Below, piece after piece: positions 8,559 to 34,200 of a stretch of 64,000 nt of DNA. The position numbers were made by a program, and so were the translations under genes. Below the pieces are notes generated by a model. That model was not told where the DNA came from. It saw only the letters and a program-made list of their open reading frames with translations, and did not search any database. Source of the DNA: a virus; the IMG/VR virus record IMGVR_UViG_3300030104_006883, positions 32,001-96,000 of that record; one strand, 5' to 3'. Position 1 is the first letter of the stretch. Each line of letters opens with the position of its first letter.

Positions 8559-9806
8559 GTGGATAAAAAAATTAAGGTCTTCGTAATCAGCGACATGATC
8601 CTGTCGCCTTCTGGAGTAGGCACCCAGACGAAGTATATGGTTGATGCCTTGGTAAAGACGGGAAGATATGAATTTATATGTCTTGGTGGAGCAGTAAAAC
8701 ACCATAGTTATGAACCGATCAAGTACGGCGACGATGTAGTAATTTTCCCTGTTGATGGGTATGGCAATCATGATATGATCAGGTCGCTGATAAGAACCCA
8801 TAAGCCAGACATGTTGTGGTTCATGACTGATCCAAGGTTCTATGAGTGGCTTTGGGAAATAGAAAATGAGATACGTCCATTGATTCCAATGGTTTATTAT
8901 CATGTTTGGGATAATTATCCTTATCCAAAATTTAATAAGCCTCATTACGAATCTTGCGATGTTATAGTTAATATTTCTAAAGTAACTGATGATATTGTTA
9001 AAACGGTAGCGCCGAACGTAGAGAGCTATTATATGCCTCATGCGGTGGACAATAATATTTTTTCTAAAGTAGATGACCAAGCTCTTGCTACTTTTAGGAA
9101 GGAGCATTCTTTGGATGATGGTAAATTCACGGTGTTCTGGAATAATAGAAATGCGAGAAGAAAACAGAGTGGCACTGTTATATGGTGGTTTAACGAATTC
9201 TTGAAGATAGTTGGGAAAGATAAGGCAAGGTTGGTCATGCACACCGATATTAGAGACCCTCATGGCCAAGACCTGGGAGCTATTATCCAAGAATTAGGAC
9301 TTGGGAATCGCGAAGTGGTTTTTTCGACTCAAAAGCATCCACCGGAGGTACTTGCTTTGTTATATAATAATGCTGACTGCACCATAAATATAGCTGACGC
9401 TGAAGGTTTTGGTCTCGGCACTATGGAATCTTTATCATGTGAAACACCAATTATTGTGACAATGACAGGTGGTTTACAGGAGCAGGTCACAGATGGAGAA
9501 AACTGGTTTGGAATTGGTCTGAAGCCCGCTTCTTCTGCTATTATCGGCTCATTGCAGGTTCCGTACATACGGGAGGATAGAGTTTCTGAAGAAGATGTTG
9601 TACAAGCGCTATTAGACATGTATAACAAGACCGATGAAGAAAGAAGCGCAATAGGCAAAGCTGGCCGTGAGCACATTTTAAGAAATTACAACTTTGATGA
9701 TTACGGCAATAAGTGGGTAGAACTCATGGACAAAATTCACGAGGAACACGGATCTTGGGACAATAGAAAGAAACACAATCGTTGGGTTTTAAAGGAAATA
9801 AGATAA
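8559..9806 (+). CDS. GT4-family (GT-B) glycosyltransferase
   Basis: SGVG N-terminal loop; NIADAEGFGLGTMESLSCETPIIVTMTGGLQE (EX7E). Confidence 0.9.
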   Translation: MDKKIKVFVISDMILSPSGVGTQTKYMVDALVKTGRYEFICLGGAVKHHSYEPIKYGDDVVIFPVDGYGNHDMIRSLIRTHKPDMLWFMTDPRFYEWLWEIENEIRPLIPMVYYHVWDNYPYPKFNKPHYESCDVIVNISKVTDDIVKTVAPNVESYYMPHAVDNNIFSKVDDQALATFRKEHSLDDGKFTVFWNNRNARRKQSGTVIWWFNEFLKIVGKDKARLVMHTDIRDPHGQDLGAIIQELGLGNREVVFSTQKHPPEVLALLYNNADCTINIADAEGFGLGTMESLSCETPIIVTMTGGLQEQVTDGENWFGIGLKPASSAIIGSLQVPYIREDRVSEEDVVQALLDMYNKTDEERSAIGKAGREHILRNYNFDDYGNKWVELMDKIHEEHGSWDNRKKHNRWVLKEIR

Positions 9807-11059
9807 TGTATAAAGTTATATTGAAAGCACCCGTACTTTCTAGATCTGGCTATGGGGAACACTCTAGGTTCGTCCTAAGATCTTTAATGAGGCGAGAAGA
9901 CATTTTTGACATTTATGTAATGAACATAAACTGGGGAGCAACAGGAATAGTTCCTGAAGATACTGAAGAGAGGCGGTGGATAGACTTTTTAATTCACAAG
10001 ACTATTCACGCTGTGCAACAGAATAACACTCAATTTGATATATCTTTACAAGTAACCATACCGAACGAATGGGAGCGAATAGCAAAAACAAATATTGGAA
10101 TAACCGCCGGTATAGAAACAAATATGGTCTCGCCTGTTTGGATCCAAAAGACGGAAGAAACCGTTGATAAGATTATTGTAACGTCGGAACACGCAAAAGC
10201 AGGGTTCCTTGAAACAGTGTGCACCGTCCAGGGGCCTAATGGTGAGGTGATTCGTAATGATTTTAAATGTACTAAACCGATAGAGGTGGTCAATTATCCT
10301 GCTAAGAATCTAGAGCCGATAGATATTGGGCTTGAATTACCTAATGACTTTAATTTTCTGTGCGTAGCACAATGGTCCCCAAGAAAAAATCTAGATAATA
10401 CCATTAGATGGTTTGTGGAAGAATTTATTAATGATGAGGTTGGCCTTGTTGTAAAGGCGAACTTTTCAAAAAACTGTGTATACGATAGGTATAAGTGCGA
10501 GCAAAGGCTACATTCAATACTACAAGCTTATCCTGATAGAAAGTGTAGTGTCTATTTGTTGCATGGTGGATTACGCGATGAAGAGGTGCATGGGCTCTAT
10601 AGGCATGATAAGATCAAGGCTATAATCAATCTCGCACACGGAGAAGGGTTTGGACTACCATTATTTGAAGCAGCCCAAGCGGGACTACCAGTCATAGCCC
10701 CAGATTGGAGTGGCCATTTAGATTTCTTATATATGCCCGTTGAAAACAAGAAGGGTAAAACCAAGAGTAAGGCTATGTTTGCTAAAGTTAACTACGATAT
10801 TGGCCAGGTCCAGCCGGAAGCTAGATGGGAGGGGGTTATAGAAGAACAAAGCTCTTGGTGCTATCCAGATCCTAAATCTTACAAAAACAAGCTAAGAGAA
10901 ATTTTTAAAGATCAGCCTAGATTTAAAAAGCATGCAAAGGACTTGCAAGAGTGGATCTCTGAAGAGTTTGAGCAAGAGAAGATGTACAAGAAGATGTCTG
11001 ACGCTATTCTTAGTGCGCTGCCGCAAGAAAAGGATGAAAATATACAGGTATTCGGATGA
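9806..11059 (+). CDS. GT4-family (GT-B) glycosyltransferase
   Basis: SGYG loop, PRKNLD, HGEGFGLPLFEAAQAGLPVIAPDWSGHLDF; ATG 9806 overlaps upstream TAA. Confidence 0.9.
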   Translation: MYKVILKAPVLSRSGYGEHSRFVLRSLMRREDIFDIYVMNINWGATGIVPEDTEERRWIDFLIHKTIHAVQQNNTQFDISLQVTIPNEWERIAKTNIGITAGIETNMVSPVWIQKTEETVDKIIVTSEHAKAGFLETVCTVQGPNGEVIRNDFKCTKPIEVVNYPAKNLEPIDIGLELPNDFNFLCVAQWSPRKNLDNTIRWFVEEFINDEVGLVVKANFSKNCVYDRYKCEQRLHSILQAYPDRKCSVYLLHGGLRDEEVHGLYRHDKIKAIINLAHGEGFGLPLFEAAQAGLPVIAPDWSGHLDFLYMPVENKKGKTKSKAMFAKVNYDIGQVQPEARWEGVIEEQSSWCYPDPKSYKNKLREIFKDQPRFKKHAKDLQEWISEEFEQEKMYKKMSDAILSALPQEKDENIQVFG

Positions 11060-12681
11060 GGACCGTAGTTTTTATAGCAGATTTTTATGCTAACGAGATT
11101 GCAGGCGGAGGGGAGCTTGTTAACGAGGTTTTAATTAATGGTCTTAAAGATAGGGGGTTTAAGGTACGTAGCTTGAAGAGCCAAGAGGTTACGGAAGACT
11201 ATATTAAACAAAGTGATGATTTTTTTATTATTGCTAATTTTATAGGCTTAAATGCTGCTTGCTTGTCCGCTCTTTACGAAAAAGATTATGTGATATTTGA
11301 GCATGATCACAAATATCTAAAGACTAGAGACCCTTCGCCATTTCCTAATTATCTGGCCACTGAAGACCAAATTATAAACAAGGAGTTTTATAAAAGAGCA
11401 AAGGCTGTTTTTTGTCAATCTAAGATACATTCCGAAGTTGTTAATAAAAACTTACTTATAAATAATGTTGTTAATTTGGGCTGTAGCATGTGGTCTGACA
11501 ACCATGTCCGTGTACTTAGAGAAAACTTAAACAAAGATAAGAAAAGAGACAAAGCAATCATTGCTTCTACAAATGCTGTTAAGGGAACCCGACAGGCAGA
11601 GGCTTTCTGTAAAAAATTAAACAACCCCTATGAGTTAATCCAGCCGTGTTCTTTTGAAGACTTGATTCCACAACTGGCTGAATTTAAAAGCCTAGTCTTT
11701 TTTTCGCAGGTTCTGGAAACCTTCTGTAGGTTAGCTGTAGAGGCCAGGATTCTTGGATGTAAGCTTGTAACAAACGGGAATAACGGATGTACTTCGGAGG
11801 AGTGGTTTGGGAAGCTAGAAGGAGAGGAACTTCTAAATTTTGTTGAGTCCAAAAGAGACGAAATTGTTGATACCGTAGCATCTGCTGTAACAGGCGCAGA
11901 TGGGATTAATTTTTTCAAAAAAGAAAGGTCTTCGGATACTGCGGACATAACAGTTATATTGAATTCATATAGAAGACCATATAATTTAAAGAGACAAGTA
12001 GAGGCCATAAGAAGTCAAGTCATAGGATGTAAAGAAATATGGCTTTGGGTAAATGATCATGAAGATAATCATGATTTTGATTATTCTGAGCTTGGGCTAG
12101 ACAAAATATTTCACAATAACCATAATTGGAAGTTTTATGGACGTTTTGCTGGAGCCTTGTTAGCTGATACGGAATATATTGCAATTTTTGATGACGACAC
12201 CGTACCAGGAAGACTGTGGTTTAAAAATTGCTTAGATACCATGGAAACACATGAGGGTATTCTAGGTAGCGCTGGTATAATCTTGAATGATTATCATTAC
12301 GTCAAACATGATCGATGTGGTTGGCCGACGCAAAACCCAGAGACGGAAGAGGTTGACTTGGTAGGGCATGCTTGGTTTTTCAAAAGAGAGTGGCTCCAAT
12401 ATCTTTGGAAAGAAAAACCTCCGACCTGGGACAACGGAGAAGACATACAGTTTGCCTACTCTGCTAAAACATATGGAGGTATAAAAACTTTCTGTCCTCC
12501 ACACCCCCCTAACAATAAAGAAATGCATGGGTCTACGCTTGGTAACGAGCTAGGCATTGACTCTAAGGCAACATCAAATAACAATGAGACAACTCACCAA
12601 CAATTCTTTAGTGAAAGAGATATGTGTGTTATACATGGTATAAAGAATGGTTGGGAAACAGTTCGAGGAGTAAAAATATGA
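11056..12681 (+). CDS. two-domain glycosyltransferase (GT-B-like N-terminus fused to GT2/GT-A-like C-terminus)
   Basis: AGGGEL...ETFCRLAVEARILGC in N half; VILNSYRR, FDDD, GEDI in C half. Confidence 0.75.
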   Translation: MRTVVFIADFYANEIAGGGELVNEVLINGLKDRGFKVRSLKSQEVTEDYIKQSDDFFIIANFIGLNAACLSALYEKDYVIFEHDHKYLKTRDPSPFPNYLATEDQIINKEFYKRAKAVFCQSKIHSEVVNKNLLINNVVNLGCSMWSDNHVRVLRENLNKDKKRDKAIIASTNAVKGTRQAEAFCKKLNNPYELIQPCSFEDLIPQLAEFKSLVFFSQVLETFCRLAVEARILGCKLVTNGNNGCTSEEWFGKLEGEELLNFVESKRDEIVDTVASAVTGADGINFFKKERSSDTADITVILNSYRRPYNLKRQVEAIRSQVIGCKEIWLWVNDHEDNHDFDYSELGLDKIFHNNHNWKFYGRFAGALLADTEYIAIFDDDTVPGRLWFKNCLDTMETHEGILGSAGIILNDYHYVKHDRCGWPTQNPETEEVDLVGHAWFFKREWLQYLWKEKPPTWDNGEDIQFAYSAKTYGGIKTFCPPHPPNNKEMHGSTLGNELGIDSKATSNNNETTHQQFFSERDMCVIHGIKNGWETVRGVKI

Positions 12682-13682
12682 TACTTATAAGCTTTGGTAC
12701 AAGACCTGAATATATAAAAATAAAGCCTCTTCTAAAAGAATTTTCTAAACAAAAAGTTGATTATAAGCTGCTTTTAACGGGACAACACACGGACCTGCTG
12801 TCTTCTATTGAAGAAGATGTCGATAGACTAGAGATAATAGATGGTGATAGCAGGCTAGACTCGATCGTGTCCTCTGTAATGAATAATAATCACATTTTTG
12901 ATGGAGTAGACGCAGTACTTGTCCAAGGAGACACAACTTCTGCTTTCTCGATCGCTTTAGCGGCTTTTCATAGAAAAATAAAGATAATACATTTGGAGGC
13001 GGGCCTTAGAACTTACGATATGCTCAACCCTTACCCGGAAGAGTTTAATAGACAAGTTATATCTAGAATGTCTGACATAAACTTATGTCCGACTGAAGAG
13101 TCAAGTATCAATTTAAAACATGAGCGCGTAGGTGGCAAGACTTATGTTGTTGGGAATACTGTTTTAGATAACATTGTAGATATTGAGACGGAGTACACTA
13201 ACAAAGTTGTAATTACGATGCATCGGCGTGAAAACCATGAGCTAATCCCCGAATGGTTTCGCAAACTTGATGAGATAGCAAAAAACAACAAGCACTTGGA
13301 ATTTATATTACCAATCCATCCGAACCCTAATGTATATAAACATAAGGATTTACTACATCATGTAAAAGTGGTAAAACCAATGGAGTATAGTGAATTTATT
13401 AAACTTTTAGCATCTTGCAAGTTTGTAATTACTGACAGCGGTGGATTGCAAGAAGAATCCTCATTCTTTAGAAAGAAGTGTATTGTTTGTCGAAAAACAA
13501 CAGAGAGAATTGAAGGCATGGGTGTTTTTGCATTTTTGTGCATGGGAGTAGAGGACTTGCGTGGCCTTGTGCAGTGGGTAGACGAAGATCATATTCCGGA
13601 TGAAAAAGAAGTTTGTCCGTATGGAGATGGCAAGTCCGCTGAAAAAATATGTAAAATTTTAAGGCAAAACCATGGACTTTAA
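12678..13682 (+). CDS. wecB: UDP-N-acetylglucosamine 2-epimerase (non-hydrolysing)
   Basis: GTRPEYIK, TGQH, VQGDTTS, HLEAGLRT, PYPEEFNR, TDSGGLQEE, PYGDG; ATG 12678. Confidence 0.92.
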   Translation: MILISFGTRPEYIKIKPLLKEFSKQKVDYKLLLTGQHTDLLSSIEEDVDRLEIIDGDSRLDSIVSSVMNNNHIFDGVDAVLVQGDTTSAFSIALAAFHRKIKIIHLEAGLRTYDMLNPYPEEFNRQVISRMSDINLCPTEESSINLKHERVGGKTYVVGNTVLDNIVDIETEYTNKVVITMHRRENHELIPEWFRKLDEIAKNNKHLEFILPIHPNPNVYKHKDLLHHVKVVKPMEYSEFIKLLASCKFVITDSGGLQEESSFFRKKCIVCRKTTERIEGMGVFAFLCMGVEDLRGLVQWVDEDHIPDEKEVCPYGDGKSAEKICKILRQNHGL

Positions 13683-14448
13683 GACAGATTTCCATAGGCT
13701 GCTCGACAAGCTACAGAATGGTGAGAATTTTGCTTTTAGCAGGTTCTCAGACGGGGAAATTGCTATAATGCAGGGAAAGTTATTAGTTCTTGCTAGCGAT
13801 CGAGTTATTTTAGGAGAAACAGTATATAATTTTGGATATTCGGAGAATGACCACAAAGAGTTCGATCCAAAAAGAGACAAGTTTTTGACTGATAAATTAA
13901 TAGAGGCTTACAAGCATAAACAAGATAACTATTTTGTTGGGGGCATTTGTAGAAATTGCACTTGTGCTTCAAGTGAGTTTAAACCTTGGATGCGCGAGCT
14001 TTATGGACCTGACGACGAGCATGCGATGTCTGCAAATTTACTCGTTAATTCAAACTATCCGATGTTTATAAACCACTTCATACCACAACTAAAAAAACAT
14101 AACGTGATAATGATATGTAATGAAAACGCTAATTTAGAAAAACTACCTTTTGAAGTTGTGAAAGATTTTAGAGTTGGAAAAAACTGTATTGTAAATGATC
14201 ATCACTTGATTGATGATATAAAAAAATATATAAACGATAACGAGATAAAAGATCATGTTTTTTTGTTTTCTGCGAGCAGTTTGAGCGAGGTTTTAATTTA
14301 CGAACTTTTTAAACAGAATAGTGAAAATACCTATATTGATATTGGAACCACTTTGCATCCGTATATGGGCATGGAACTAGCTAGAGACTACTTGAGAGCA
14401 TATCATGGTGGTGGTTTCCATCCGGACTTGGTTAAAAGCTGTTCTTAG
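13672..14448 (+). CDS. GT-D fold (DUF1792-like) glycosyltransferase
   Basis: FAFSRFSDGE N-terminal signature and C-terminal YIDIGT. Confidence 0.6.
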   Translation: MDFKTDFHRLLDKLQNGENFAFSRFSDGEIAIMQGKLLVLASDRVILGETVYNFGYSENDHKEFDPKRDKFLTDKLIEAYKHKQDNYFVGGICRNCTCASSEFKPWMRELYGPDDEHAMSANLLVNSNYPMFINHFIPQLKKHNVIMICNENANLEKLPFEVVKDFRVGKNCIVNDHHLIDDIKKYINDNEIKDHVFLFSASSLSEVLIYELFKQNSENTYIDIGTTLHPYMGMELARDYLRAYHGGGFHPDLVKSCS

Positions 14449-14456
14449 GTAGTTTT

Positions 14457-14843
14457 ATGAAAGAATTTGTTTTAAATAATAGAAGATTTTGGGAGTTTAT
14501 TCGCCAGCTTAGAAATGACGAAAGAGTTAAGCATGGGTTTATAGAACAAGTGGAAATAACCAAAGAACAGCATGAAAAATACATGAATTTACATGGGGAT
14601 AAGTTTTATATTTGCCTAGTAGGACAGAAAGCGGCAGGGTATGTCGGAGTGATAGACAATGATATAAGAGTGGCAACGCATCCGGACTATCAAAAAAAAG
14701 GAGTTGCTCTTTACATGATAAACGAATTAATGAAGCTTCACCCCGAGGCCTTTGCGAAGGTTAAGGTGGGGAATGAAGCAAGCGTAGCCTTATTTGAAAA
14801 GGCTGGATTTAAGAAGAAATATTATATTTTGGAGAAACAATAA
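14457..14843 (+). CDS. GNAT N-acetyltransferase (PseH/RimJ-like)
   Basis: LRND...EITKEQH, HPDYQKKGVA acetyl-CoA loop, NEASVALFEKAGF. Confidence 0.8.
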   Translation: MKEFVLNNRRFWEFIRQLRNDERVKHGFIEQVEITKEQHEKYMNLHGDKFYICLVGQKAAGYVGVIDNDIRVATHPDYQKKGVALYMINELMKLHPEAFAKVKVGNEASVALFEKAGFKKKYYILEKQ

Positions 14844-15718
14844 TGTATAGCTTAGTATTTGATATAGGGCACAACAAGTTTAGGTTTACGGAAAAATGCC
14901 TGGAGGCTAACCCTAGTTGCAATATAGTTGCAGTTGACGCAATAGATTTTAGTAAATGGGCTAAAGTTGACGACGAGAGCAGAAGGGATTTCAACGAAGC
15001 GATCGCTACATTATCACGTCTAAAATCTAAGTATGGAGACAGGATCCAAGTTTACAACAATATAGTAACCGATGAAGAGGGTTGCGAAGAGACCATTAAT
15101 ATACACACGGTTGCAACAGGAAAGTCGACAGCTATGGATATGGACGAACACATGGACCAGTCTCGGTTTTTCAACGGCAATAAATATATACTCGAAGAGT
15201 ATAATAACGTGATGACGACACATACTGGAATCAAGACGCCTCTTGAAGAATACATAATGGGGCTAAAACACAACTATGGTTCTGTAAAAAATGCGATTTC
15301 CACAGCCGCTTTGCCTTACTACCAAGAAGAAACGGTTTTAACCACAACACTAGATTCTCTAATCTCAAAAGAGGGAGTGCCTGATTTAATAAAAATAGAT
15401 GTGGAGGGCTACGAACACAAAGTAATCAAAGGCTTGACAGAGAAAGCGAACAAAATTTGTTTTGAATTTACTGAAGAGATGGACTATTGTTTGTATGAAT
15501 CTTTTCTTCACTTACAATCTTTGGGATATGAAAGCTTTGGAATTTGTGGATTTTTTGAAGAAGGGGACGGACATCGATATTTAACGTATGATTCTAATGG
15601 TGATACTCCTTTTAGAGAGCCTGAAGAATATTTTTCTATGGAATACGTTATGTTAGATTTGAGAAAAATATTGCACCCCAAAAGAAGAGTAAACTGGGGA
15701 ATGGCTTGGGTTAAATAA
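14843..15718 (+). CDS. FkbM-family SAM methyltransferase
   Basis: VFDIGHN, TTTLDSLI, PDLIKIDVEGYEHKVIKG. Confidence 0.85.
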   Translation: MYSLVFDIGHNKFRFTEKCLEANPSCNIVAVDAIDFSKWAKVDDESRRDFNEAIATLSRLKSKYGDRIQVYNNIVTDEEGCEETINIHTVATGKSTAMDMDEHMDQSRFFNGNKYILEEYNNVMTTHTGIKTPLEEYIMGLKHNYGSVKNAISTAALPYYQEETVLTTTLDSLISKEGVPDLIKIDVEGYEHKVIKGLTEKANKICFEFTEEMDYCLYESFLHLQSLGYESFGICGFFEEGDGHRYLTYDSNGDTPFREPEEYFSMEYVMLDLRKILHPKRRVNWGMAWVK

Positions 15719-22682: not shown

Positions 22683-22702
22683 AATTTTAAAAGGAAAATA
22701 AA

Positions 22703-23242: not shown

Positions 23243-23245
23243 CTT

Positions 23246-23908: not shown

Positions 23909-24306
23909 TGAGTGCAAAAGACTATCCACCCGGATTTGAAAAAGATACAAACAATCTTGCTATTGACTTTGATGGCGTGATTCACAACTATGATAAAGGC
24001 TATCACGACGGCACCTGCTATGGTGATCCAATTGAAGGCTCCCTTGAGGCTATAAGAAGCCTGTCAAAAGACTATAATATAGTTATTTTTACGGCCAAGG
24101 CTAAACCATCTAGGCCACTAGTAAACGGAAAGACTGGAGTCGAACTAGTTCAAGAGTGGCTTGAAAAGCATGATGTGATGCAATATGTGGCCGAGATCAC
24201 CGCTGAAAAGCCCCGATCGCAGATCTACATAGATGATAAAGGATACCACTTCCAGAACTGGGAAGACACTCTGAAATACCTGGAAGAGAAAGATGGAAGA
24301 ATTTAG
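23908..24306 (+). CDS. HAD-superfamily phosphatase
   Basis: AIDFDGVIH, FTAK, KP, YIDDKG. Confidence 0.8.
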   Translation: MSAKDYPPGFEKDTNNLAIDFDGVIHNYDKGYHDGTCYGDPIEGSLEAIRSLSKDYNIVIFTAKAKPSRPLVNGKTGVELVQEWLEKHDVMQYVAEITAEKPRSQIYIDDKGYHFQNWEDTLKYLEEKDGRI

Positions 24307-26004: not shown

Positions 26005-27151
26005 TTGGCCGCTAATAAATGATAATATTTCGCAAAGAGATAAAGAGATACTTTCTCATTTTATTCTAAAAAGCAATAGGTTTACTAATGGGCCTAAAGT
26101 AGCTGAATTCGAGGAAGAGTGGTCTAAGTGGCTCGGAGTAAAGTACAGCGTGATGGTCGGGTCTGGAGCCGCTGCTAACTATATAACAACTTCCATAACG
26201 AGAGAGTTAAAAGGATCAGGCGGAGAAATTATTGTTCCACCTATTGGATGGGTATCTGATATATCATCCGTAATCAACACCGGATTCACGCCTGTGTTTG
26301 TAGATGTCAATCTGGCAACCATGGCTATTGCCTATGAAAACATTAAAGCAGCCATAAATGAAAATACGAAAGCGATTGTTCTTGTTCATGCGCTTGGTTT
26401 TAATGGAATTAATGATAAAATTATTTCTTTGGCGAAGGAGCATGATCTGCTGTTATTAGAGGACTGCTGTGAAGCTCATGGTGCGACTTATAATGGCAAG
26501 AGGGTTGGTTCTCTTGGTGATATGTCTTGTTTTTCTTTTTATTTTGGCCATCATATAACAACTATTGAAGGCGGGATGGTTTGTACAAATGATGAAGAAA
26601 CGTACCAACTTGCGAGAATGCTTAGATCTCATGGCATGACACGCGAAGCCTCTAAAGAAACACAGGAGAAATACGCCAGTCCGGACCTTAACCCTTTGTT
26701 TACTTTTGCTGTGCCTGGATACAACATGAGGAGCACTGAAATAAATGCTGTTTTAGGTCTAGAGCAAATTCGAAGGTTAGATTACAATGTACACACACGA
26801 CAACAAAATTTTGATACCTGGATAAACAACTTAGATAGTGAGAAGTATTATACTAAGTTTGCAGATGCCGGTAACAGCAATTTTGCTCTTCCTTTAATCT
26901 TAGCTGAAGGGAGCACAAAAAAAGATGTTGTATGCGCAATTCTTGAAGAAGAAAAAGTAGAGTATAGACTTGGCACAGCAGGCGGCGGCAATCAGGCCAG
27001 ACAGCCTTATTTAAAAAACTATGAGCATAAGATAGTTGAAGAGTTGAAGAATTCCAACTATATCCATGATTATGGGTTGTACATTGGCAATCATACTGAT
27101 TTATCGGAACAGCAGATTAAAAATCTATGTGCAAGGTTAAATGATGTTTAA
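25997..27151 (+). CDS. ColD-like GDP-4-keto-6-deoxymannose 3-dehydratase (DegT fold, His replacing the PLP Lys)
   Basis: LLLEDCCEAHG, SFYFGHHITTIEGGM, LRSHG, GYNMRSTE; lacks the Cys-rich Fe-S insert of RfbH/E1; ATG 25997. Confidence 0.8.
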   Translation: MYDWPLINDNISQRDKEILSHFILKSNRFTNGPKVAEFEEEWSKWLGVKYSVMVGSGAAANYITTSITRELKGSGGEIIVPPIGWVSDISSVINTGFTPVFVDVNLATMAIAYENIKAAINENTKAIVLVHALGFNGINDKIISLAKEHDLLLLEDCCEAHGATYNGKRVGSLGDMSCFSFYFGHHITTIEGGMVCTNDEETYQLARMLRSHGMTREASKETQEKYASPDLNPLFTFAVPGYNMRSTEINAVLGLEQIRRLDYNVHTRQQNFDTWINNLDSEKYYTKFADAGNSNFALPLILAEGSTKKDVVCAILEEEKVEYRLGTAGGGNQARQPYLKNYEHKIVEELKNSNYIHDYGLYIGNHTDLSEQQIKNLCARLNDV

Positions 27152-28115
27152 AAACCAAAAGGTCTTAGTTACTGGTGGCTCTGGCATGATTGGCAGAGAA
27201 CTAGTATCATTATTACTAGAAAAGGGTGCTAGCGTCTATATCGCGGACCTCAAGCAACCAGAGGAACTAAAAGATAAAGTTACATTTGTTAAGGTAGACT
27301 TGCGAGAGTACTCCTCTTGTTTACAGATCTGTGAAGGTATGGACTATGTGTTTAATTTGGTGGGAATTAAGTGCTCGCCAAGAGTCTGCATTGAGGAGCC
27401 AGCGAAGATAATGGGTCCTATGATGCAATTTAACACGAACATGCTTGAGGCAGCAATGCACCACAATGTAAAATGGTACCTATATACAAGCACAGTGGGT
27501 GTTTACCAACCGGCAGAAGTCCTAAGAGAGGACGATGTTTGGTCAACACAACCCTCAAAGAACGATTGGTTCGGAGGCTGGGCAAAGCGAATGGGAGAAC
27601 TTCAATGCCAAGCGTACCAGAAGCAGTACGGAGAGGGGAAATGCAGTATCGTAAGACCTGCAAATGTTTATGGTCCCCACGACAACTTTGACCTAGATAG
27701 TGCAATGGTAATACCTTCTCTTATTAGGAAAGCATTTAGTAACGATGTTTTACAAGTATGGGGCGATGGCTCATCTATTAGAGACTTTATTCACGCGAGA
27801 GATGTTGCCAGGGGTATGATTTTTGCGGTAGAAAATAAAATAACAGAACCACTTAATCTTGGCTCCGGAGATGAAATTAGCATCAAAAGAATAGCAGAGG
27901 CTGTAGCTAAAGAGGCAGATGTAAAAATAGAATGGGACACTTCCAAGCCAACAGGAGACCACAGAAGAGTTTTTGACATGGAAAGAGCAAAGTCTCATGG
28001 TTTCCAGCCCCAGATCTCAATCGAAGAGGGCGTCAAAGAAACAATTGACTGGTACTTGAAAAATAAATCAATGGCTGATTCTGGCAAAGACGTGTTTAAA
28101 TTGTTGGAGAAGTAA
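27141..28115 (+). CDS. GDP-fucose synthase-like extended SDR lacking the catalytic Tyr
   Basis: TGGSGMIG, RPANVYGPHDNF, VIPSLIRK, VWGDG..IRDFIH; YxxxK site reads GGWAK. Confidence 0.75.
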   Translation: MMFKNQKVLVTGGSGMIGRELVSLLLEKGASVYIADLKQPEELKDKVTFVKVDLREYSSCLQICEGMDYVFNLVGIKCSPRVCIEEPAKIMGPMMQFNTNMLEAAMHHNVKWYLYTSTVGVYQPAEVLREDDVWSTQPSKNDWFGGWAKRMGELQCQAYQKQYGEGKCSIVRPANVYGPHDNFDLDSAMVIPSLIRKAFSNDVLQVWGDGSSIRDFIHARDVARGMIFAVENKITEPLNLGSGDEISIKRIAEAVAKEADVKIEWDTSKPTGDHRRVFDMERAKSHGFQPQISIEEGVKETIDWYLKNKSMADSGKDVFKLLEK

Positions 28116-28697
28116 TTGAAAAAGTTTAAAGTTTTAATAACTGGCTGCTCTTCTGGGCTAGGGCTCCATTTGGCCAATAAATTTGAAAAGGAAGGTCATT
28201 TTGTTTTTAGACATGAAGGCAAAAAGCACTTTGATTTGTCAAAAATAGAAGAAGTTAAACACTTATCAGAAGAAGCAAAAAAGCTCGAAATAGATGTCTT
28301 AGTTAATAATGCAGCGATGGTATGTCCAAGCATTGTTTTAGAGGAATATGAAGATGACTTAATTGATTCAATGATAGAGGTAAACTTGAAAGCTCCAATT
28401 GTATTAACTAAAAAATTACTTCCGACTTTAAAGAATCTTATAAATATTAATTCCATGGTTGGGCTGGAAATAAAGGCACCTAGAACACTCTACTCTGCCA
28501 CTAAGTGGGGACTGAGAGGCTTTTCAAATAGTCTAAAGAAGGAAAGCAATCTGTCGGTTTTAGACGTATACCCCACGAATATAAAAACAACCCCGGATAG
28601 GGTAAATGCAATGGATATCGATATGGTTGTTGATGAGATCTACAGCGCGTTTGTTGAAGAAAAAGAAGAACTAATATTGGACGGAAGAAAAAGATGA
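28116..28697 (+). CDS. classical short-chain dehydrogenase/reductase
   Basis: TGCSSGLG, VLVNNAA, INSMVG, YSATK; TTG start. Confidence 0.85.
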   Translation: MKKFKVLITGCSSGLGLHLANKFEKEGHFVFRHEGKKHFDLSKIEEVKHLSEEAKKLEIDVLVNNAAMVCPSIVLEEYEDDLIDSMIEVNLKAPIVLTKKLLPTLKNLININSMVGLEIKAPRTLYSATKWGLRGFSNSLKKESNLSVLDVYPTNIKTTPDRVNAMDIDMVVDEIYSAFVEEKEELILDGRKR

Positions 28698-29647
28698 AAA
28701 GAATTTTAATTTGCGGAGCAACAGGGTTCATAGGTAGAAACCTCTTAGATTTCTACTCTAAAGATAAGAAATATAAAATTAGGGCTACCCACTTTAAGAG
28801 ACCGGCTTTATCTGGTTATGAAGACGTTGAGTGGGTACAGTGTGATCTTCGCGATCCAAAGCAGGTGTCAGATGTCCTGCAAGACGTAGATATAATTATG
28901 CAGTTTGCTGCCACCACAACTGGAGCAAAGGATATTGTCTCTAAACCGTATATCCATGTCACGGACAATGTTATTATGAATTCTTATCTCTTACGAGAGG
29001 CTTTTGAGCAAGGAGTGGAGCATTTTATTTTTCCAAGCTGCACAATAATGTACCAAAAATCAGAAAAAGCCTTAAAAGAAGACGACTACAACCCTTCGGA
29101 TGATATTTTGCCTTTTTATTATGGAGCGGGGCACACAAAGGTGTACTTAGAAAACATGTGTAAGTTTTATGCTGGTTTTGGAAAAACCAAGCACACGGTT
29201 ATTAGGCACTCTAATTTATACGGACCTCATGATAAATATGATTTAGAAAAGTCTCATGTAACAGGAGCGACAATTACTAAAGTCATGACTTCTAGAAATG
29301 ATGTTGTTAGCGTATGGGGAACCGGGGAGGAGGCGAGAGACCTACTGTATATAGAAGATTTTATTTCCTTTATAGAGGCAGCGATAAACAATCAAGAAAG
29401 CGACTATGAGCTTTATAACGTTGGCTTAGGTAAGGGTATAAAAATTAAAGATTTAGTTAAAAAAGTGATACAATGTTCTGGTAAAAATTTAAAAATTGAA
29501 CATGACTTAACGAAACCAACGGTGCCTACTTCTTTATTTTTAGACTGTACAAAGGCAAAAAAAGAGCTTAATTGGGAGCCAAACTATACTTTAGAAGGTG
29601 GTTTAAAAGAAACAATCAAATGGTATAAGGAAAATTATAATGGGTAA
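28694..29647 (+). CDS. GDP-fucose synthase-like extended SDR lacking the catalytic Tyr
   Basis: GATGFIG, FPSCTIMY, RHSNLYGPHD, VWGTG..ARDLLY; YxxxK site reads AGHTK. Confidence 0.75.
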   Translation: MKRILICGATGFIGRNLLDFYSKDKKYKIRATHFKRPALSGYEDVEWVQCDLRDPKQVSDVLQDVDIIMQFAATTTGAKDIVSKPYIHVTDNVIMNSYLLREAFEQGVEHFIFPSCTIMYQKSEKALKEDDYNPSDDILPFYYGAGHTKVYLENMCKFYAGFGKTKHTVIRHSNLYGPHDKYDLEKSHVTGATITKVMTSRNDVVSVWGTGEEARDLLYIEDFISFIEAAINNQESDYELYNVGLGKGIKIKDLVKKVIQCSGKNLKIEHDLTKPTVPTSLFLDCTKAKKELNWEPNYTLEGGLKETIKWYKENYNG

Positions 29648-30434
29648 TCTAAAAACAGACATGGACTCGTTTGAATTAAGTGAGAAGCAACTTGAATTTT
29701 ATTACGAAAATGGGTATTTATTAATCCCTCAAGTATGGGGGAGAGAGGAAATCGACATTATTAGAAAAGACCTAGATGAGGCCGCAGAGGGCCATTTTAC
29801 GGTTAGGCTAGATATGCATTTTCATAAAAGTATAAAACAGGCACATAGAGGAAAAAAGATGTGCGACATTGGGGATGCTATATGTAATGGACGAGCAGTG
29901 CCAATAGCTGCAACTACATTTTTTTGCAAGCCAAATAATCCACTAGAATATGGATCAATATGGCATCAAGACAATTTTGCCCCTATGGCTCCTAACGGAA
30001 ACAATTATATAAATTTAGCTATAGCTGTTGATGACGCCGACGAAACAAACGGATCTTTGATCGTGATCCCTGGAAGCCATAAATTTGGTATGCTGTCTTT
30101 TGACCCTAGCCCAAATTTCTCACGAGATGAGAAGGGTCGTATAGTACAGGTTGCACCGATTGGAGATGCCAAAAAGCTGAGTGATTACACAAACGCTGAT
30201 GGAATCGTACTTTCCGACGACCTTCCGACAGTGCAGTTAAAGTATAATGCAGGAGATGTTCTGGTAGTAAATGGATTGTTGCTACACAAGGCTGATAAAA
30301 ATATGCATCCAACTCGATGGAGGCGTACAATATACGCGGTTTATATCAAGGAGAAGGAGCCTTTTTGGCCAGGATGGACCGCGCAAAGAAAACTTCTAGA
30401 AAGATATGATTCTCCGAATTATAACAAAGGATAA
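29640..30434 (+). CDS. Fe(II)/2-oxoglutarate dioxygenase, PhyH family
   Basis: WHQDN (HxD), NGSLIVIPGSH, AGDVLV...LLHKA (distal His), RR. Confidence 0.85.
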   Translation: MGNLKTDMDSFELSEKQLEFYYENGYLLIPQVWGREEIDIIRKDLDEAAEGHFTVRLDMHFHKSIKQAHRGKKMCDIGDAICNGRAVPIAATTFFCKPNNPLEYGSIWHQDNFAPMAPNGNNYINLAIAVDDADETNGSLIVIPGSHKFGMLSFDPSPNFSRDEKGRIVQVAPIGDAKKLSDYTNADGIVLSDDLPTVQLKYNAGDVLVVNGLLLHKADKNMHPTRWRRTIYAVYIKEKEPFWPGWTAQRKLLERYDSPNYNKG

Positions 30435-30437
30435 AAA

Positions 30438-31445
30438 TTGAAGAGAGCAGTTATTACAGGAATCACAGGTATGGTTGGTTCTCATCTGGCAGATTATCTG
30501 CTTGAGAACACAGATTGGGAAGTGTATGGACTGGTTCGATGGAATGACAAGATGGATAACATTGAACACCTCATGCCACTAATCAATAACAAAGAAAGAA
30601 TTCATCTTTTAAATGCGGATATTAATGATCTGGCTTCGCTATTAACTTGCTTTAAGGAGTCAAATCCGGACTATGTTTTTCATTTAGCTGCACAAAGCTA
30701 CCCAAAAACAAGCTTTACCGCACCTCTTGAGACATTAGAAACAAATATCCTTGGTACGGCGAAAGTCCTCGAAGCAATAAGAGTATTAAAGCAAGATCCG
30801 GTGGTACACGTATGTGCGTCTTCGGAAGTTTTCGGTCGAGTGCCAAAAGAATTTTTACCAATTCACGAGGATATAACTTTTCATCCTGCCTCTCCCTATG
30901 CGATTTCAAAAGTAGGAACAGATCTTGTTGGTAGATTTTATGGAGAGGCTTATGGCATGACTGTGATAACGACTCGAATGTTTACCCATACGGGTCCACG
31001 AAGAGGGGATGTGTTTGCTGAATCAACGTTTGCAAAGCAAATTGCCATGATTGAAAAGGGCCTCCAAGAACCAGTTGTTAAAGTAGGAAATTTGGAATCT
31101 CTTAGAACTTGGTCCGATGTTAGAGATGCTGTTAGGGCTTATTACCTGCTGGTCACGCAGGATCCGAAAGCCGGAGAGTATTACAATATTGGTGGATCGT
31201 TTACTTGCACTATCAGGGAGATGTTGGATCATTTAATATCTCTATCAACAGTTAAGGATATTAAAGTTGAGACCGATCCTGAAAGACTACGGCCAATCGA
31301 TGCAGATTTGCAAGTGCCCGATACGACGAAATTCAAGTCGCACACTGGATGGGAACCAGAAATATCTTTTGAAAGAACTATGTTGGATCTGTTAAACTAT
31401 TGGAGAGAGCAAGTTAATTCTGGCCAAAGGTTTTTGTCTAGATAA
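30438..31445 (+). CDS. gmd: GDP-mannose 4,6-dehydratase-like (Gmd/Rmd group)
   Basis: ITGITGMVGSHLA, HLAAQS, ASSEVFG, PASPYAISK, RMFTHTGPRRG, GNLES.RTWSDVRD, RPID. Confidence 0.8.
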   Translation: MKRAVITGITGMVGSHLADYLLENTDWEVYGLVRWNDKMDNIEHLMPLINNKERIHLLNADINDLASLLTCFKESNPDYVFHLAAQSYPKTSFTAPLETLETNILGTAKVLEAIRVLKQDPVVHVCASSEVFGRVPKEFLPIHEDITFHPASPYAISKVGTDLVGRFYGEAYGMTVITTRMFTHTGPRRGDVFAESTFAKQIAMIEKGLQEPVVKVGNLESLRTWSDVRDAVRAYYLLVTQDPKAGEYYNIGGSFTCTIREMLDHLISLSTVKDIKVETDPERLRPIDADLQVPDTTKFKSHTGWEPEISFERTMLDLLNYWREQVNSGQRFLSR

Positions 31446-31455
31446 GGACGGACAG

Positions 31456-32190
31456 ATGTCTATTTTAGTTATTGGAGAAAGTTGTCTCGATGTGTTTAGG
31501 TATGGTGAGTGTAACCGGATGTGCCCGGAAGCTCCTGTGCCAGTGTTTAACCCTATAGAAACCACAGAAAACGGGGGGATGGCAACTAATGTCTATACAA
31601 ATCTTATTAGTATGAAATCGGAAGCAGATATTCTTACTAATGAAAATTATAATTCTATTAAGAAAATAAGATTTATAGATCATAGGACCAATCATATGTT
31701 TATGCGCCTCGATGAAAGGGATGGGGATTATGGTACGTGTCCGGTTGAGGACATAGACTTCGATAAATATCAAGCTATAATAGTATCTGATTACAACAAA
31801 GGATACCTTTCGGAAGAGCATATAAATTATATTGGTAGATCCCACGATAGTGTCTTTTTAGACACGAAAAAAATACTGGGGGATTGGTGTGAGAGTGTAA
31901 AATTTATTAAATTTAACAGCGCAGAATACGAAAGGTCTAAACCATATATAAACAGGACTATTGAAGAGAAGCTTATTGTAACTCTTGGCCCCCAGGGCGC
32001 TCGGCATAATGGCACGATCTACTCGGTGCCCAAAGTAGATATCAAGGACACCTCCGGAGCAGGAGACACCTTTGTAGCTGCGCTTGTTAGCGAATATATA
32101 GATAGCAAAGACATAGGCAAAGCTATAGAATATGCAAATAGGTGCTCAACTGTTGTAGTTCAAAAGAAAGGGGTTGCAACTATATGGTGA
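31456..32190 (+). CDS. HldE/RfaE kinase domain (PfkB family), stand-alone
   Basis: VIGESCLD, PEAPVPV, GGMATNV, IVSDYNKG, DTSGAGDTF. Confidence 0.85.
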   Translation: MSILVIGESCLDVFRYGECNRMCPEAPVPVFNPIETTENGGMATNVYTNLISMKSEADILTNENYNSIKKIRFIDHRTNHMFMRLDERDGDYGTCPVEDIDFDKYQAIIVSDYNKGYLSEEHINYIGRSHDSVFLDTKKILGDWCESVKFIKFNSAEYERSKPYINRTIEEKLIVTLGPQGARHNGTIYSVPKVDIKDTSGAGDTFVAALVSEYIDSKDIGKAIEYANRCSTVVVQKKGVATIW

Positions 32191-32579
32191 TTTGGACAAA
32201 TGGTTGTTACGATGTTTTACACAGAGGGCACGTTGAATTATTTAAATACGCGGCATCTTTAGGCACAAAATTGATAGTTGGAATAGACACTGACGAAAGA
32301 GTCGCCGCCGCCAAAGGCCCTAGCAGGCCTTTTAATAATTTAGAAGACAGAAAGTTTCTTCTACAGTCCATTCGCTATATAGACGAAGTTTATGAGTATT
32401 CATCTGACGCAGAATTAGAAAATCTATTGGTTGAAAATAATGTTGACACGATGGTGATTGGATCGGACTGGGAAGGAAAAGGTGTTATTGGTGAGAAACT
32501 AGTTAAAAATATTAAATTTTTTGATAGAATAGAGGGGTACTCTACAACGAAGGTTTTAGAAAATGGTATACGTAGTTGA
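32184..32579 (+). CDS. HldE/RfaE nucleotidyltransferase domain, stand-alone
   Basis: WTNGCYDVLHRGH, LIVGIDTD, KGPSRP, GSDW, GYSTT; ATG 32184. Confidence 0.88.
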   Translation: MVIWTNGCYDVLHRGHVELFKYAASLGTKLIVGIDTDERVAAAKGPSRPFNNLEDRKFLLQSIRYIDEVYEYSSDAELENLLVENNVDTMVIGSDWEGKGVIGEKLVKNIKFFDRIEGYSTTKVLENGIRS

Positions 32580-32886
32580 CATAGATGGGACTATTTGTAG
32601 CTCTACAGTAAGCGGAGACTACGAAGACTCAGCACCGTACATGCATAGAATAGAAAAAATCAATTCTTTGTATGAAGATGGGCACACCATAATATACTTC
32701 ACCGCAAGAGGAATGGGAAGACATAACAATAATCCGGTAAGAGCCGTTCAGGATTTCTATTCTATGACAGAGGTGAGGCTTAGGCAGTGGGGAGCTAAGT
32801 ATCATGAGCTAATACTTGGGAAACCAGCAGCCGATGTTTATATAGATGATAAAGGGATAGAAGCAAATGAGTTCTTCAACAAATAA
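32563..32886 (+). CDS. small HAD-superfamily phosphatase (capsule-cluster type)
   Basis: VVDIDGTIC, YFTARG, LGKP, YIDDKG. Confidence 0.8.
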   Translation: MVYVVDIDGTICSSTVSGDYEDSAPYMHRIEKINSLYEDGHTIIYFTARGMGRHNNNPVRAVQDFYSMTEVRLRQWGAKYHELILGKPAADVYIDDKGIEANEFFNK

Positions 32887-33238
32887 AACTCCCCCCATAA
32901 AGTTTGTTAAAAAAGGATGGGGATATGAAAAATGGATTGTTAATAAAAAAGAATATTGTGGAAAGCTATTGTTTTTTCTACAAGGCAAAAGATGTTCTTG
33001 GCATTACCATGTTTTGAAAGACGAAGTGTTTTATCTACAGTCTGGTAAGATGATGTTATACTATTCTGAAAATGATGATATAACAAAGGCTAAACAACTA
33101 ATATTAAACCCTGGGGACAATTTTTATGTTTACCCAGGCCTGAGACATCAGATGGTTGCGTTGGAAGATAGCGAACTATATGAATTCTCAACAGAACATT
33201 TTGACAGTGACTCGTACAGAGTTATAAAAGGTGATTAG
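32867..33238 (+). CDS. cupin, sugar isomerase-like
   Basis: VKKGWGYEKWIVN..YCGKLL, SWHYH..KDEVF, HQM, EFST. Confidence 0.75.
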   Translation: MSSSTNKTPPIKFVKKGWGYEKWIVNKKEYCGKLLFFLQGKRCSWHYHVLKDEVFYLQSGKMMLYYSENDDITKAKQLILNPGDNFYVYPGLRHQMVALEDSELYEFSTEHFDSDSYRVIKGD

Positions 33239-34200
33239 TGAAATTAGTAGTTATAACAGGATGTTTGGGGTTTATTGGCTCTCACGTTACTCGTCTTTGC
33301 CTAAATAAGGGCTGGAGAGTGTACGGAATTGACGATCTTACTTATGCGGCCAACAAAGAACTGCTAGAAGAGTTCTACTCGTTTAATAAAAAGGAAGATA
33401 ACTTTGTTTTTAAGAAAGCAAATATTTGCGATTTAAAATCTATACCCGATTGCGACTATATCATAAATACAGCCGCAGAAACTCACGTTGGTAATAGTAT
33501 AATCGACAGTGAAGATTTTATTAAAAGCAATATTAATGGAGTTAAGAATATTCTTGATATCATAAAAAGCAAGCCAACAAATGTTGGACAAAGGCCAGTG
33601 CTGTTTCACTTTAGCACGGATGAGGTATATGGGGACATTATAAAAGGCGCTCATACTGAGAAAGATCCTCTTAAGCCAAGCAACCCATACTCTGCCTCTA
33701 AAGCATCGTCAGACATGCTGATTGAAGCCTGGGCTAGAACTTATGGAATTAATTACGTTATTTTGCGTCCAACTAATAATTATGGTACCCATCAAAACGC
33801 AGAAAAGCTAATACCACTTTCAGTCAAACTCTTACAGAGAGGAAAAAAGATACGATTGCACGACAGAGGAGAGCCGTATAGAAACTGGCTACATGCGGAA
33901 GATACCGCAAGTGGAGTCATAAGCATTATTGAATCTGGCGTTTTAAACGAGATTTTTAATATCGCTGGAGGATTTGAGCAGAAAAACAAAGAAACCGTTA
34001 AAAAAATAATAGAATGTTATTTCTCCCATAGTGTAGATTGGAATGATTATATTGATTTGGACTACGCTAGACCAGGACAGGATGTTAGATATTCGCTGGA
34101 CGACAGCAAACTAAGGAGCCTGGGTTGGGAGCCGAAAAAGAATTTTGATGAGGAAATAAGTGCTATTGTTTGGCACTATAAAAATAATTTTAAATGGTAA
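33238..34200 (+). CDS. rmlB: dTDP-glucose 4,6-dehydratase family
   Basis: TGCLGFIGS, DDLTYAA, AAETHV, FSTDEVYG, PSNPYSASKAS, NNYG.HQ..EKLIP, RPGQDVRY. Confidence 0.9.
   Translation: MKLVVITGCLGFIGSHVTRLCLNKGWRVYGIDDLTYAANKELLEEFYSFNKKEDNFVFKKANICDLKSIPDCDYIINTAAETHVGNSIIDSEDFIKSNINGVKNILDIIKSKPTNVGQRPVLFHFSTDEVYGDIIKGAHTEKDPLKPSNPYSASKASSDMLIEAWARTYGINYVILRPTNNYGTHQNAEKLIPLSVKLLQRGKKIRLHDRGEPYRNWLHAEDTASGVISIIESGVLNEIFNIAGGFEQKNKETVKKIIECYFSHSVDWNDYIDLDYARPGQDVRYSLDDSKLRSLGWEPKKNFDEEISAIVWHYKNNFKW

Follow-up and report, generated by a model that had tools for sequence, protein, structure and literature searches.

A variable glycan-biosynthesis island at a fixed locus of marine T4-type myoviruses, with virion proteins as its possible acceptor

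The stretch of DNA analysed here (the window) is 64,000 nucleotides long and represents bases 32001-96000 of a single 185,927-bp contig, IMG/VR virus record IMGVR_UViG_3300030104_006883; positions are those of the window unless marked as genome positions. From 8559 to 34200 it carries a run of genes for glycosyltransferases (GTs) and sugar-modifying enzymes. We are highly confident that this run is a flexible glycan-biosynthesis island, situated at a fixed locus between a PD-(D/E)XK nuclease gene and a late-sigma-like gene in an abundant, uncultured marine lineage of T4-type myoviruses. The lineage core would be a virus-specific pair of retaining GT4 enzymes, called GT1 and GT2 here, often accompanied by a third, compact GT-B module, and the remaining 0-24 kb would consist of cassettes exchanged among phages. 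As to what receives the glycan, our tentative preference is for an acceptor that the phage itself encodes and that is glycosylated in the cytoplasm, a virion surface protein being the most plausible candidate. The island and its virion acceptor together form our best explanation, to which we assign a probability of roughly 0.42.

The fixed locus is evident from the relatives of its boundary genes. GT1 (8559-9806) and GT2 (9782-11059), which like all the island genes lie on the plus strand, were both identified as GT4 enzymes by Pfam Glycos_transf_1 and phrog_2170, GT2 being a distant paralogue of GT1. At about 60% identity, GT1 has at least 124 relatives in IMG/VR and is present in 80 of 80 related loci; GT2 is present in 77 of them. 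The nuclease that forms the conserved left anchor (7770-8549, plus strand; Pfam PF12705, E 1.1e-17) directly precedes GT1 in 79 of the 80, and the gene order PhoH, two small genes, PD-(D/E)XK, GT1 and GT2 is near-invariant (71-80 of the 80 GT1-anchored loci). GT1 was also found in all five long contigs picked independently via the sigma gene. The conserved right anchor (34213-35736) comprises an open reading frame (ORF) of about 72 codons, a zinc-ribbon protein, a protein with two transmembrane (TM) segments and the late-sigma-like protein, which has at least 431 relatives in IMG/VR. An earlier reading of the window, made from the letters alone (the sequence-only reading), had raised the question whether the first three GTs are core and the rest variable. 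This turns out to be so for GT1, GT2 and the variable remainder; the third module, the compact GT-B domain of GT3, is frequent among the relatives rather than core.

Between the anchors, the content changes from phage to phage. GT1 and the sigma gene are 26.5 kb apart here, and between 3.35 and 27.5 kb apart across 22 contigs. At two loci (L094 and L114) the zinc-ribbon and sigma genes of the right anchor come straight after GT2 and there is no island; L094 belongs to a complete genome of 180.7 kb with terminal repeats, which keeps GT1 and GT2 and has no SDR gene anywhere. The closest relative (GT1 87% and sigma 98% identical) is without 20840-32866 and differs at two further places, and in L086 the homologue of the gene at 19837 is directly followed by that of the gene at 32867, the 12-kb cassette (20840-32886) being absent. 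The block 25099-33238 recurs in L123 with 46-91% identity per gene (73-91% across 25099-30438), whereas identity in the core proteins of L123 is no higher than 62-65%. Since cassette proteins of 73-91% identity are carried on backbones of 60-65% identity, we conclude that cassettes move between phages. When the islands of 155 related loci were pooled, their genes formed 404 clusters, with 218 singletons, and the representatives of 148 clusters matched 106 Pfam families; the leading ones are GT family 2, SDR, Glyco_trans_1_2, methyltransferases, thiamine pyrophosphate (TPP)/transketolase, FkbM, DegT, cytidylyltransferase and formyltransferase.

The locus could in principle be an assembly chimera, or phage DNA to which a cellular O-antigen locus was joined by mistake. 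Its gene content does look cellular, and close GT1 homologues are found in metagenome-assembled genomes (MAGs) labelled Pelagibacter, Woesearchaeota and Gammaproteobacteria. However, those MAG contigs share the phage synteny ClpP-PhoH-nuclease-GT1-GT2, and the locus is common to 80 IMG/VR loci and three cultured phages. GC content and GC skew also run smoothly through the block without a break at its flanks, both of which are made of same-strand phage genes with no gaps. A chimera is ruled out by this synteny and we leave it next to no probability; the backbone shared with the 80 loci and the cultured phages establishes that the block is phage-borne, as the sequence-only reading had taken it to be. 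The MAG contigs of the lineage (L172-L178) are phage DNA that was binned wrongly. Their bins bear the labels Candidatus Pelagibacter (two), Woesearchaeota (two bins, holding three contigs), Gammaproteobacteria and 'uncultured proteobacterium', and these labels are unreliable as evidence of the host.

Judged by their sequence relatives, GT1 and GT2 are phage genes and not captured host genes. A scan with a narrow GT1 alignment, covering one genome for each of 185,579 prokaryote species, gave nine GT1 matches, all on phage-syntenic contigs, and the nearest Atlas clusters of GT2 are 100% viral. Protein matches to GT1 were found in 10 of 50,697 phage records, including Flavobacterium phage immuto, Microcystis phage Mel-JY01 and Rhodothermus phage RM378. 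In immuto and Mel-JY01, the nearest cultured phages, PD-(D/E)XK, GT1 and GT2 are followed by a GT-A gene and sugar genes in the same layout as here, with identities of 32-35% for GT1 and, for GT2, of 31% in immuto and 32% in Mel-JY01. In RM378, GT1 is followed by an unannotated gene of 425 residues amid replication genes. Both proteins of the window keep the EGFGL...E sequence (E-x7-E motif) and score above the Pfam cut-off for Glycos_transf_1, and E282-x7-E290 of GT1 is invariant in the alignment. PDB sequence searches gave no match for GT2, GT3 or the ORF at 13672; those for GT1 were weak (E 8e-8 or worse) and generic for GT4, namely BshA, MshA and sucrose-phosphate synthase, with PBCV-1 B736L also among the weak matches (E 4e-4).

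Some relatives of GT1 carry inteins. GT1 has 249 representative clusters at E<1e-30 in a library of 1.84 billion proteins, and 17 of the best 150 clusters are 574-911 residues long, with the match split at about 277-297, which is an intein-like pattern. Pfam confirmed an intein in each of the three clusters checked, two of them full (Hint and LAGLIDADG) and one mini. The insertion lies in or beside the catalytic E-x7-E motif. As inteins mark conserved sites of conserved genes, their presence agrees with GT1 being a core gene. The literature searched held no report of an intein in a phage glycosyltransferase. The clusters of this type are P0002, P0015, P0030 and 14 others, with at least two or three insertion points.

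The second general property of the locus is the absence of membrane steps. The sequence-only reading had found no Wzx, Wzy, ABC exporter or phosphoglycosyl transferase, and this holds in the genome, in five complete relatives and in 1.2 Mb of related islands. TM segments were counted by Kyte-Doolittle hydropathy, a simple and crude predictor. On the coding strand of the island no ORF of at least 80 residues has two or more TM segments, and in the six frames of the whole genome no ORF has more than five and none has 10-11. The pooled islands of the 155 related loci (1.21 Mb, 1404 ORFs of at least 90 residues) contain none with three or more. By Pfam, Bac_transf (PF02397) is absent from this genome and the five complete relatives, and Polysacc_synt/Wzx (PF01943) is absent from these relatives. 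The sole five-TM protein of the genome is a PAP2-family phosphatase of 218 residues, encoded about 105 kb away from the island (genome 169479-170135); no homologue of it turned up in the related loci retrieved. Nevertheless, the absence of membrane genes, from which the sequence-only reading had argued for a soluble acceptor, does not prove one: the GTs of O-antigen loci are TM-free too, and a phosphoglycosyl transferase, Wzx and ligase of the host could serve.

The island itself is compact. The range 8559-34200 contains 32 plus-strand ORFs with spacings of -113 to +20 nt, most of them overlapping, which agrees with the earlier description of about 30 coupled genes on one strand. All six GTs then listed are real: two GT4 enzymes, a GT-B plus GT-A fusion, a GT-D fold, a GT11 and a CgeB-like enzyme. 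GT1 and GT2 are followed by GT3 (11056-12681), the fusion of a compact GT-B with a GT-A/GT2-family domain (Pfam Glycos_transf_2 at residues 300-447; AlphaFold2 (AF2) model), and by WecB (12624-13682), a non-hydrolysing epimerase for uridine diphosphate N-acetylglucosamine (UDP-GlcNAc 2-epimerase). With 241 bits against TIGR00236 (cut-off 210) and E 4e-69 against Epimerase_2, WecB is the sole sugar-nucleotide or tailoring enzyme of the island above an NCBIfam equivalog cut-off. Next come the GT with a predicted GT-D (DUF1792-type) fold at 13672-14448, a GNAT (14457-14843), an FkbM methyltransferase (14843-15718), a short DegT-like protein of 206 residues (15718-16338), a DUF268 methyltransferase-like protein (16338-17066) and a GT11 of the alpha-1,2-fucosyltransferase family (17066-17938; Pfam PF01531, E 1.4e-21). 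The GNAT, FkbM, DegT and DUF268 assignments were made by Pfam. The first part of the island ends with a nucleoside diphosphate (NDP)-sugar 6-dehydrogenase (17948-19063; TIGR03026, 224 bits, above the cut-off), a NadE-like ATP-pyrophosphatase (18990-19835; nadE domain, 189 bits) and an SDR epimerase/reductase (19837-20853; Pfam).

The 12-kb cassette was annotated by Pfam and NCBIfam. It begins with the CgeB-like GT (from 20840; Pfam Glyco_trans_1_2) and includes a conserved, uncharacterised protein of 138 residues, an RmlC-like protein, a DJ-1/PfpI protein (class I glutaminase-like, 22703-23242), a cupin, an uncharacterised protein of 132 residues, a TPP-dependent pair resembling pyruvate dehydrogenase (PDH) E1 alpha and beta, an RfbH-like 3-dehydrase, three SDRs, a PhyH dioxygenase, a Gmd-like 4,6-dehydratase, a PfkB kinase, a nucleotidyltransferase and a HAD-like phosphatase. 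A cupin gene (32867-33238; Pfam) and an RmlB-like NDP-hexose 4,6-dehydratase (33238-34200; TIGR01181, 288 bits, below the cut-off of 365) form the right end of the island. The two methyltransferases, the GNAT and the dioxygenase named in the earlier reading were recovered by Pfam; the E1-like pair, the NadE-like protein, DJ-1/PfpI and the short DegT-like protein go beyond its list. The last of these corresponds to a part of the aminotransferase fold only. In 13 loci (e.g. L083:22531-23175) whose cores are about 60% identical, it is conserved at 84-91% identity, and its counterpart in immuto has 214 residues; it is probably a distinct short form and not a broken gene.

The sugar products are deduced from the protein families only. 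WecB would yield UDP-N-acetylmannosamine (UDP-ManNAc) and the NDP-sugar dehydrogenase a uronic acid. The dehydrogenase and NadE-like genes are adjacent here and also in L065 and L086, with the DJ-1/PfpI gene nearby; the NadE-like protein may amidate the uronic acid, or it may serve NAD+ synthesis of the phage. The 4,6-dehydratases and reductases, together with the RfbH-like 3-dehydrase and the E1 alpha/beta-like pair, point to a 3,6-dideoxy sugar that carries a two-carbon branch, and GT11 suggests an alpha-1,2-linked 6-deoxyhexose. Cupin, kinase, phosphatase and nucleotidyltransferase make up a recurrent four-gene cassette, presumably for an NDP-heptose-like sugar. The heptose enzymes of the earlier reading are confirmed in so far as the PfkB protein and the nucleotidyltransferase resemble rfaE domains I and II; GmhA is not encoded. 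Likewise, the sugar-nucleotide families it named are present, and the carriers it assigned to them, guanosine (GDP), uridine (UDP) and deoxythymidine (dTDP) diphosphates, follow from family resemblance only. No primary NDP-sugar pyrophosphorylase is encoded, and therefore the pathway starts from the NDP-sugar pools of the host; to call the system autonomous was an overstatement. In our proposal, the cassettes would convert host UDP-GlcNAc, UDP-hexose, GDP/dTDP-hexose and phosphosugar into rare donors, with ManNAc, a uronic acid, 6-deoxy and 3,6-dideoxy sugars (possibly C2-branched) and a heptose-type sugar as the candidates and O/N-methyl and acetyl groups as putative decorations. They would also supply elongating GTs of the GT-A, GT-D, GT11 and CgeB-like kinds.

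Two further GTs were modelled. GT3, with 541 residues, consists in the AF2 model of a compact GT-B (1-280, predicted confidence score pLDDT above 90) and a GT-A/GT2-family domain (295-540). In Foldseek it ranks EXT1/EXT2, the bifunctional exostosins, best, followed by GtfC/Gtf3, T4 alpha-glucosyltransferase (AGT) and BshA. In four loci (L014, L025, L053 and L081) the GT2 orthologues are about 700 residues long and a GT-B domain is instead fused to the C-terminus of GT2, with 26-28% identity to window 11056-11860 over about 270 residues. This alternative fusion links the compact GT-B module with GT2 functionally. The ORF at 13672 has 258 residues and was modelled with pLDDT 86; its top three Foldseek matches are 4phr, 4pfx and 5v4a. 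In VIA-align, 202 of the 258 residues align with 5v4a and 4phr at Z 16.4 and a root-mean-square deviation of 2.8-2.9 A, the next tier being TagA/TarA at Z 10 and unrelated folds falling below Z 5. D27-G28-E29, a candidate for the metal-binding D-x-E motif, is invariant in 11 homologues. There was no Pfam match at E<=0.01, the DUF1792 model included, and no PDB sequence or profile match, so that the protein has, according to its model, the GT-D fold with similarity at the fold level only. A literature search returned nothing relevant on DUF1792 in phage, nor on Far-T4 together with glycosyltransferase.

According to our preferred explanation, all steps would be soluble and cytoplasmic: GT1 and GT2 would prime a conserved phage acceptor, the island enzymes would extend the glycan, and related phages would end up with differing surface glycans. 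A virion acceptor fits because the GT pair is virus-specific, universal and persists where there is no island at all, and because lipid-carrier genes are entirely absent. A protein as acceptor is favoured by the GT-D fold with its Fap1 precedent and by the CgeB-like GT with its spore-crust precedent, and weakly by the acidity of all six GTs (isoelectric points 5.3-6.2). To our knowledge, the GT-D fold has been characterised only in the cytoplasmic extension of the O-glycan of the streptococcal adhesin Fap1. CgeB acts in the maturation of the spore crust, which in Bacillus is glycosylated inside the mother cell. Capsids of mycobacteriophages and the particles of chloroviruses and mimiviruses are further precedents, beside this crust. 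A more specific form of the proposal, which we hold with still less assurance, is that the virions are coated with a serotype-like, exchangeable glycan, the GT4 pair priming a structural protein in the cytoplasm and the 0-24 kb island diversifying the outer sugars. If this is true, it would be a phage equivalent of O-antigen variation without a lipid carrier, drawing on a gene pool of several hundred families, and it would mean that the surface of virions in the sea is under a selective pressure so far unrecognised.

Several points weigh against a virion acceptor; the enzyme families, the published reading, the gene placement and the PAP2 phosphatase among them also speak for the rival explanation that the envelope of the host is remodelled. 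The island draws on the enzyme families of O-antigen and capsule loci, where the GTs are likewise free of TM segments, and host machinery could be used. Analogous clusters of cyanophages and pelagimyophages have been read as host-surface remodelling (PMC7824862, PMC7029224). The GT1-GT2 pair of the cultured relatives comes after genes for nuclease, DNA replication or nucleotide metabolism, a placement that would suit an early role in host takeover. The PAP2 phosphatase could act on undecaprenyl diphosphate (Und-PP) or lipid A. A scan for Ser/Thr-rich proteins flagged fibre-like structural proteins and an insertion in the gp23-family capsid protein, and was too unspecific to name an acceptor. 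The similarity of GT3 to GtfC/Gtf3 in Foldseek is no better than to many other GT-B enzymes. In the host-envelope explanation, the phage GTs build on the Und-PP-sugar primer of the host at the inner membrane face and the glycan is displayed by host Wzx and ligase or by capsule exporters, so that receptors are masked, superinfection is blocked or progeny are stopped from re-adsorbing to debris. The polymorphism between close relatives resembles O-antigen diversity, and the conservation of one GT pair across host phyla could be due to a common Und-PP-sugar primer, Und-PP-GlcNAc being widely shared in this role. Against this stand the lack of an initiating transferase, flippase, polymerase and ABC exporter in all the material scanned for membrane steps, the circulation of the cassettes among phages, and a GT pair that is virus-specific, universal and kept without an island, which is atypical of host-derived auxiliary genes; the acidic rather than basic GTs add weak evidence. 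We consider remodelling of the host envelope somewhat less likely than a virion acceptor.

Two other acceptors were weighed. A soluble acceptor of another kind, such as a non-virion phage or host protein, RNA or a small molecule, would agree with the lack of membrane steps and with a GT1/GT2 core that is present even where relatives have no island, and the nearest solved relatives of GT1 by sequence (BshA, MshA and sucrose-phosphate synthase) act on small soluble acceptors. However, those matches are weak and generic, as given above, no candidate acceptor or exporter was identified, and an elaboration of 0-24 kb that is hypervariable is hard to square with an intracellular metabolite or a regulatory modification; we find this explanation improbable. 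The remaining candidate is phage DNA, with the GTs glycosylating modified bases as in T4 glucosyl-hydroxymethylcytosine or in the methyltransferase (MT)/5mYOX systems (Pyle et al.). GT1 and GT2 adjoin a nuclease here and lie amid replication genes in RM378 and Mel-JY01, phage DNA GTs are known to derive from GTs of the lipopolysaccharide (LPS) type and can use heptose, and T4 AGT is among the fold matches of GT3. Nevertheless, this genome, rated 100% complete, has no ThyA-like hydroxymethylase (PF00303), Tet/JBP (PF12851), C5-cytosine methyltransferase (PF00145) or DpdA/TGT, so that the known routes to glycosyl-accepting bases (hydroxymethylase; C5-methyltransferase plus Tet/JBP; DpdA) are all absent. 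Furthermore, immuto has the same GT1-GT2 locus, and liquid chromatography with ultraviolet and mass-spectrometric detection of its DNA gave deoxyadenosine, deoxycytidine, deoxythymidine and fdPreQ1, and no glycosylated nucleoside (PMC10516641). Because there is no hydroxymethyl-pyrimidine route and immuto DNA is free of sugar, DNA glycosylation is unlikely, and we leave it only a few chances in a hundred. A phage-encoded virion protein remains the acceptor that we prefer.

The genome around the island is that of a complete T4-type myovirus of 186 kb with 41% GC, rated as a 100% complete virus by the collection. We base the assignment on gp23, gp25, the weak late-sigma match and the genes upstream of the block (ClpP, PhoH-PIN, RNase-H-like and PD-(D/E)XK). 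The term jumbo phage used in the sequence-only reading does not apply, since the size is just below the 200-kb threshold. The gp23-family capsid protein (genome 120872-122662, 596 residues, 202 bits) is encoded elsewhere in the genome, away from the structural module marked by the baseplate wedge protein gp25 (47604-47978, plus strand; Pfam GPW_gp25, E 2.1e-13). It contains an insertion of about 130 residues between the two parts matched by the Pfam model, which is moderately rich in serine, threonine and glycine, with a serine plus threonine fraction of 0.20 vs 0.16 overall. Two giant ORFs flank gp25, at 38719-47562 (2947 residues) and 51423-60113 (2896 residues); beside them are ORFs of 597, 542 and 602 residues, to which Pfam gave no match. 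A tRNA-Thr gene (anticodon TGT) lies at 985-1058, directly after the ClpP-like gene. Nucleotide searches of the island and the baseplate region against the 50,697 phage records gave no match, and relatives appear only at the protein level.

The block was correctly placed directly before a late sigma factor and baseplate genes, with a weak phrog_234 match (E 7.5e-5) at 35038-35736 and gp25 at 47604. The apparent gap of 223 nt after 34200 is filled by the ORF of about 72 codons (34213-34431), which was read directly from the sequence and has an AAGGAG ribosome-binding site; it is followed by the zinc-ribbon protein (from 34424; Pfam Zn_ribbon_8) and the 2-TM protein of 127 residues (from 34677), all on the plus strand like the late-sigma-like gene. 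Thus the run of genes on one strand extends into the late-sigma and baseplate genes, with no visible transcription boundary. The T4 late-promoter motif TATAAATA shows no enrichment, with 6 matches vs 6.5 expected, and the sigma-70-like promoters and terminators around 33-39 kb do not exceed chance either. As these scans give nothing above chance, the timing of island expression cannot be inferred from them.

Marine phage sugar clusters have been known for about twenty years and have always been explained, as a proposal, by remodelling of the host surface. The present locus makes the acceptor question testable, because its universal two-enzyme core is separable from an optional, exchangeable island, and because more than 1 Mb of islands without a membrane step and a cultured relative, immuto, whose DNA lacks sugar are at hand. 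If the glycan is on the virion, phage particles of the ocean would carry variable 'serotypes', which would bear on host recognition, on aggregation and sinking, and on the metagenomic reading of phage diversity. A glycan on the host would make the locus a very large superinfection-exclusion module. With either outcome it would be clear how this class of auxiliary genes is to be annotated. The class itself is already described, and the locus is a larger example of it in another lineage. Our analysis adds the core-plus-cassette anatomy, with an island that is absent in some phages and reaches 24 kb in others, and the absence of membrane genes across the lineage, as well as a virus-specific GT1/GT2 pair with inteins in some GT1 genes, a putative GT-D enzyme in a phage, and a cultured relative with the same layout (immuto).

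The known systems that come closest are the LPS- or capsule-like clusters of marine myoviruses. In Prochlorococcus phage P-SSM2 the same enzyme classes make up a 15-gene cluster, the polymorphism of which was remarked by Iyer et al. (PMC7824862), cyanophage S-SCSM2R has 13 GTs among 22 genes (PMC12801897), and pelagimyophages carry many GTs in a hypervariable host-recognition region (PMC7029224). In view of these three cases, the earlier statement that the phage cases known to it use only a few GTs is outdated. Like the locus described here, such clusters belong to T4-type phages, are polymorphic, and contain contiguous SDRs, cupins, PfkB, a HIGH nucleotidyltransferase and many GT families. 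The present one differs in its other, uncultured lineage and its larger size (32 genes, 26 kb), in being anchored on a core virus-specific GT4 pair with inteins in some members, and in holding a GT-D fold and the PDH-E1-like TPP pair. Bacterial O-antigen and capsule loci of the Wzx/Wzy or ABC type share its sugar-nucleotide chemistry, GT families and hypervariable cassettes at a fixed locus; here, by contrast, there is no initiating transferase, flippase, polymerase, chain-length regulator or ABC transporter, and the backbone is that of a lytic-type phage. Phage DNA glycosylation (T4 alpha- and beta-glucosyltransferases, MT/5mYOX clusters) similarly employs soluble GT-B enzymes on host NDP-sugars and attaches up to three sugars, heptose included (Pyle et al.), but no enzyme for hydroxymethyl-pyrimidine or 7-deazaguanine is present here.

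The streptococcal system for serine-rich repeat adhesins (GtfA/GtfB, Gtf3/GtfC and dGT1 with DUF1792) also combines a GT-B pair, a compact GT-B and a GT-D, the GT-D domain there having a GT-A partner, and it glycosylates protein stepwise without a lipid carrier. Unlike it, GT1 has no DUF1975 match in Pfam, and our scan found no serine-rich repeat acceptor. GtfB is a non-catalytic partner; an initiating pair of the GtfA/GtfB type was rejected, as GT1 lacks the DUF1975 match and both GT1 and GT2 keep their catalytic motifs. Glycans on virions themselves are described for mycobacteriophages, on capsid and tail-tube proteins, reportedly the only phage case of this kind (Freeman et al. 2023, via PMC12619734). 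The resemblance lies in phage-encoded cytoplasmic GTs that work without membrane steps; a difference is that the hosts there are Actinobacteria. The glycosylating mycobacteriophages reportedly have few GT genes and no large nucleotide-sugar pathway. Chloroviruses and Mimivirus/Megavirinae decorate particle proteins with their own nucleotide-sugar pathways and soluble GTs (PMC4691112, PMC7019647). Virus-encoded nucleotide-sugar enzymes and soluble GTs are common to them and to the island, with the B736L match to GT1 being only weak, although those viruses have eukaryotic hosts and belong to unrelated lineages. Their glycosylation gene sets are clade-specific.

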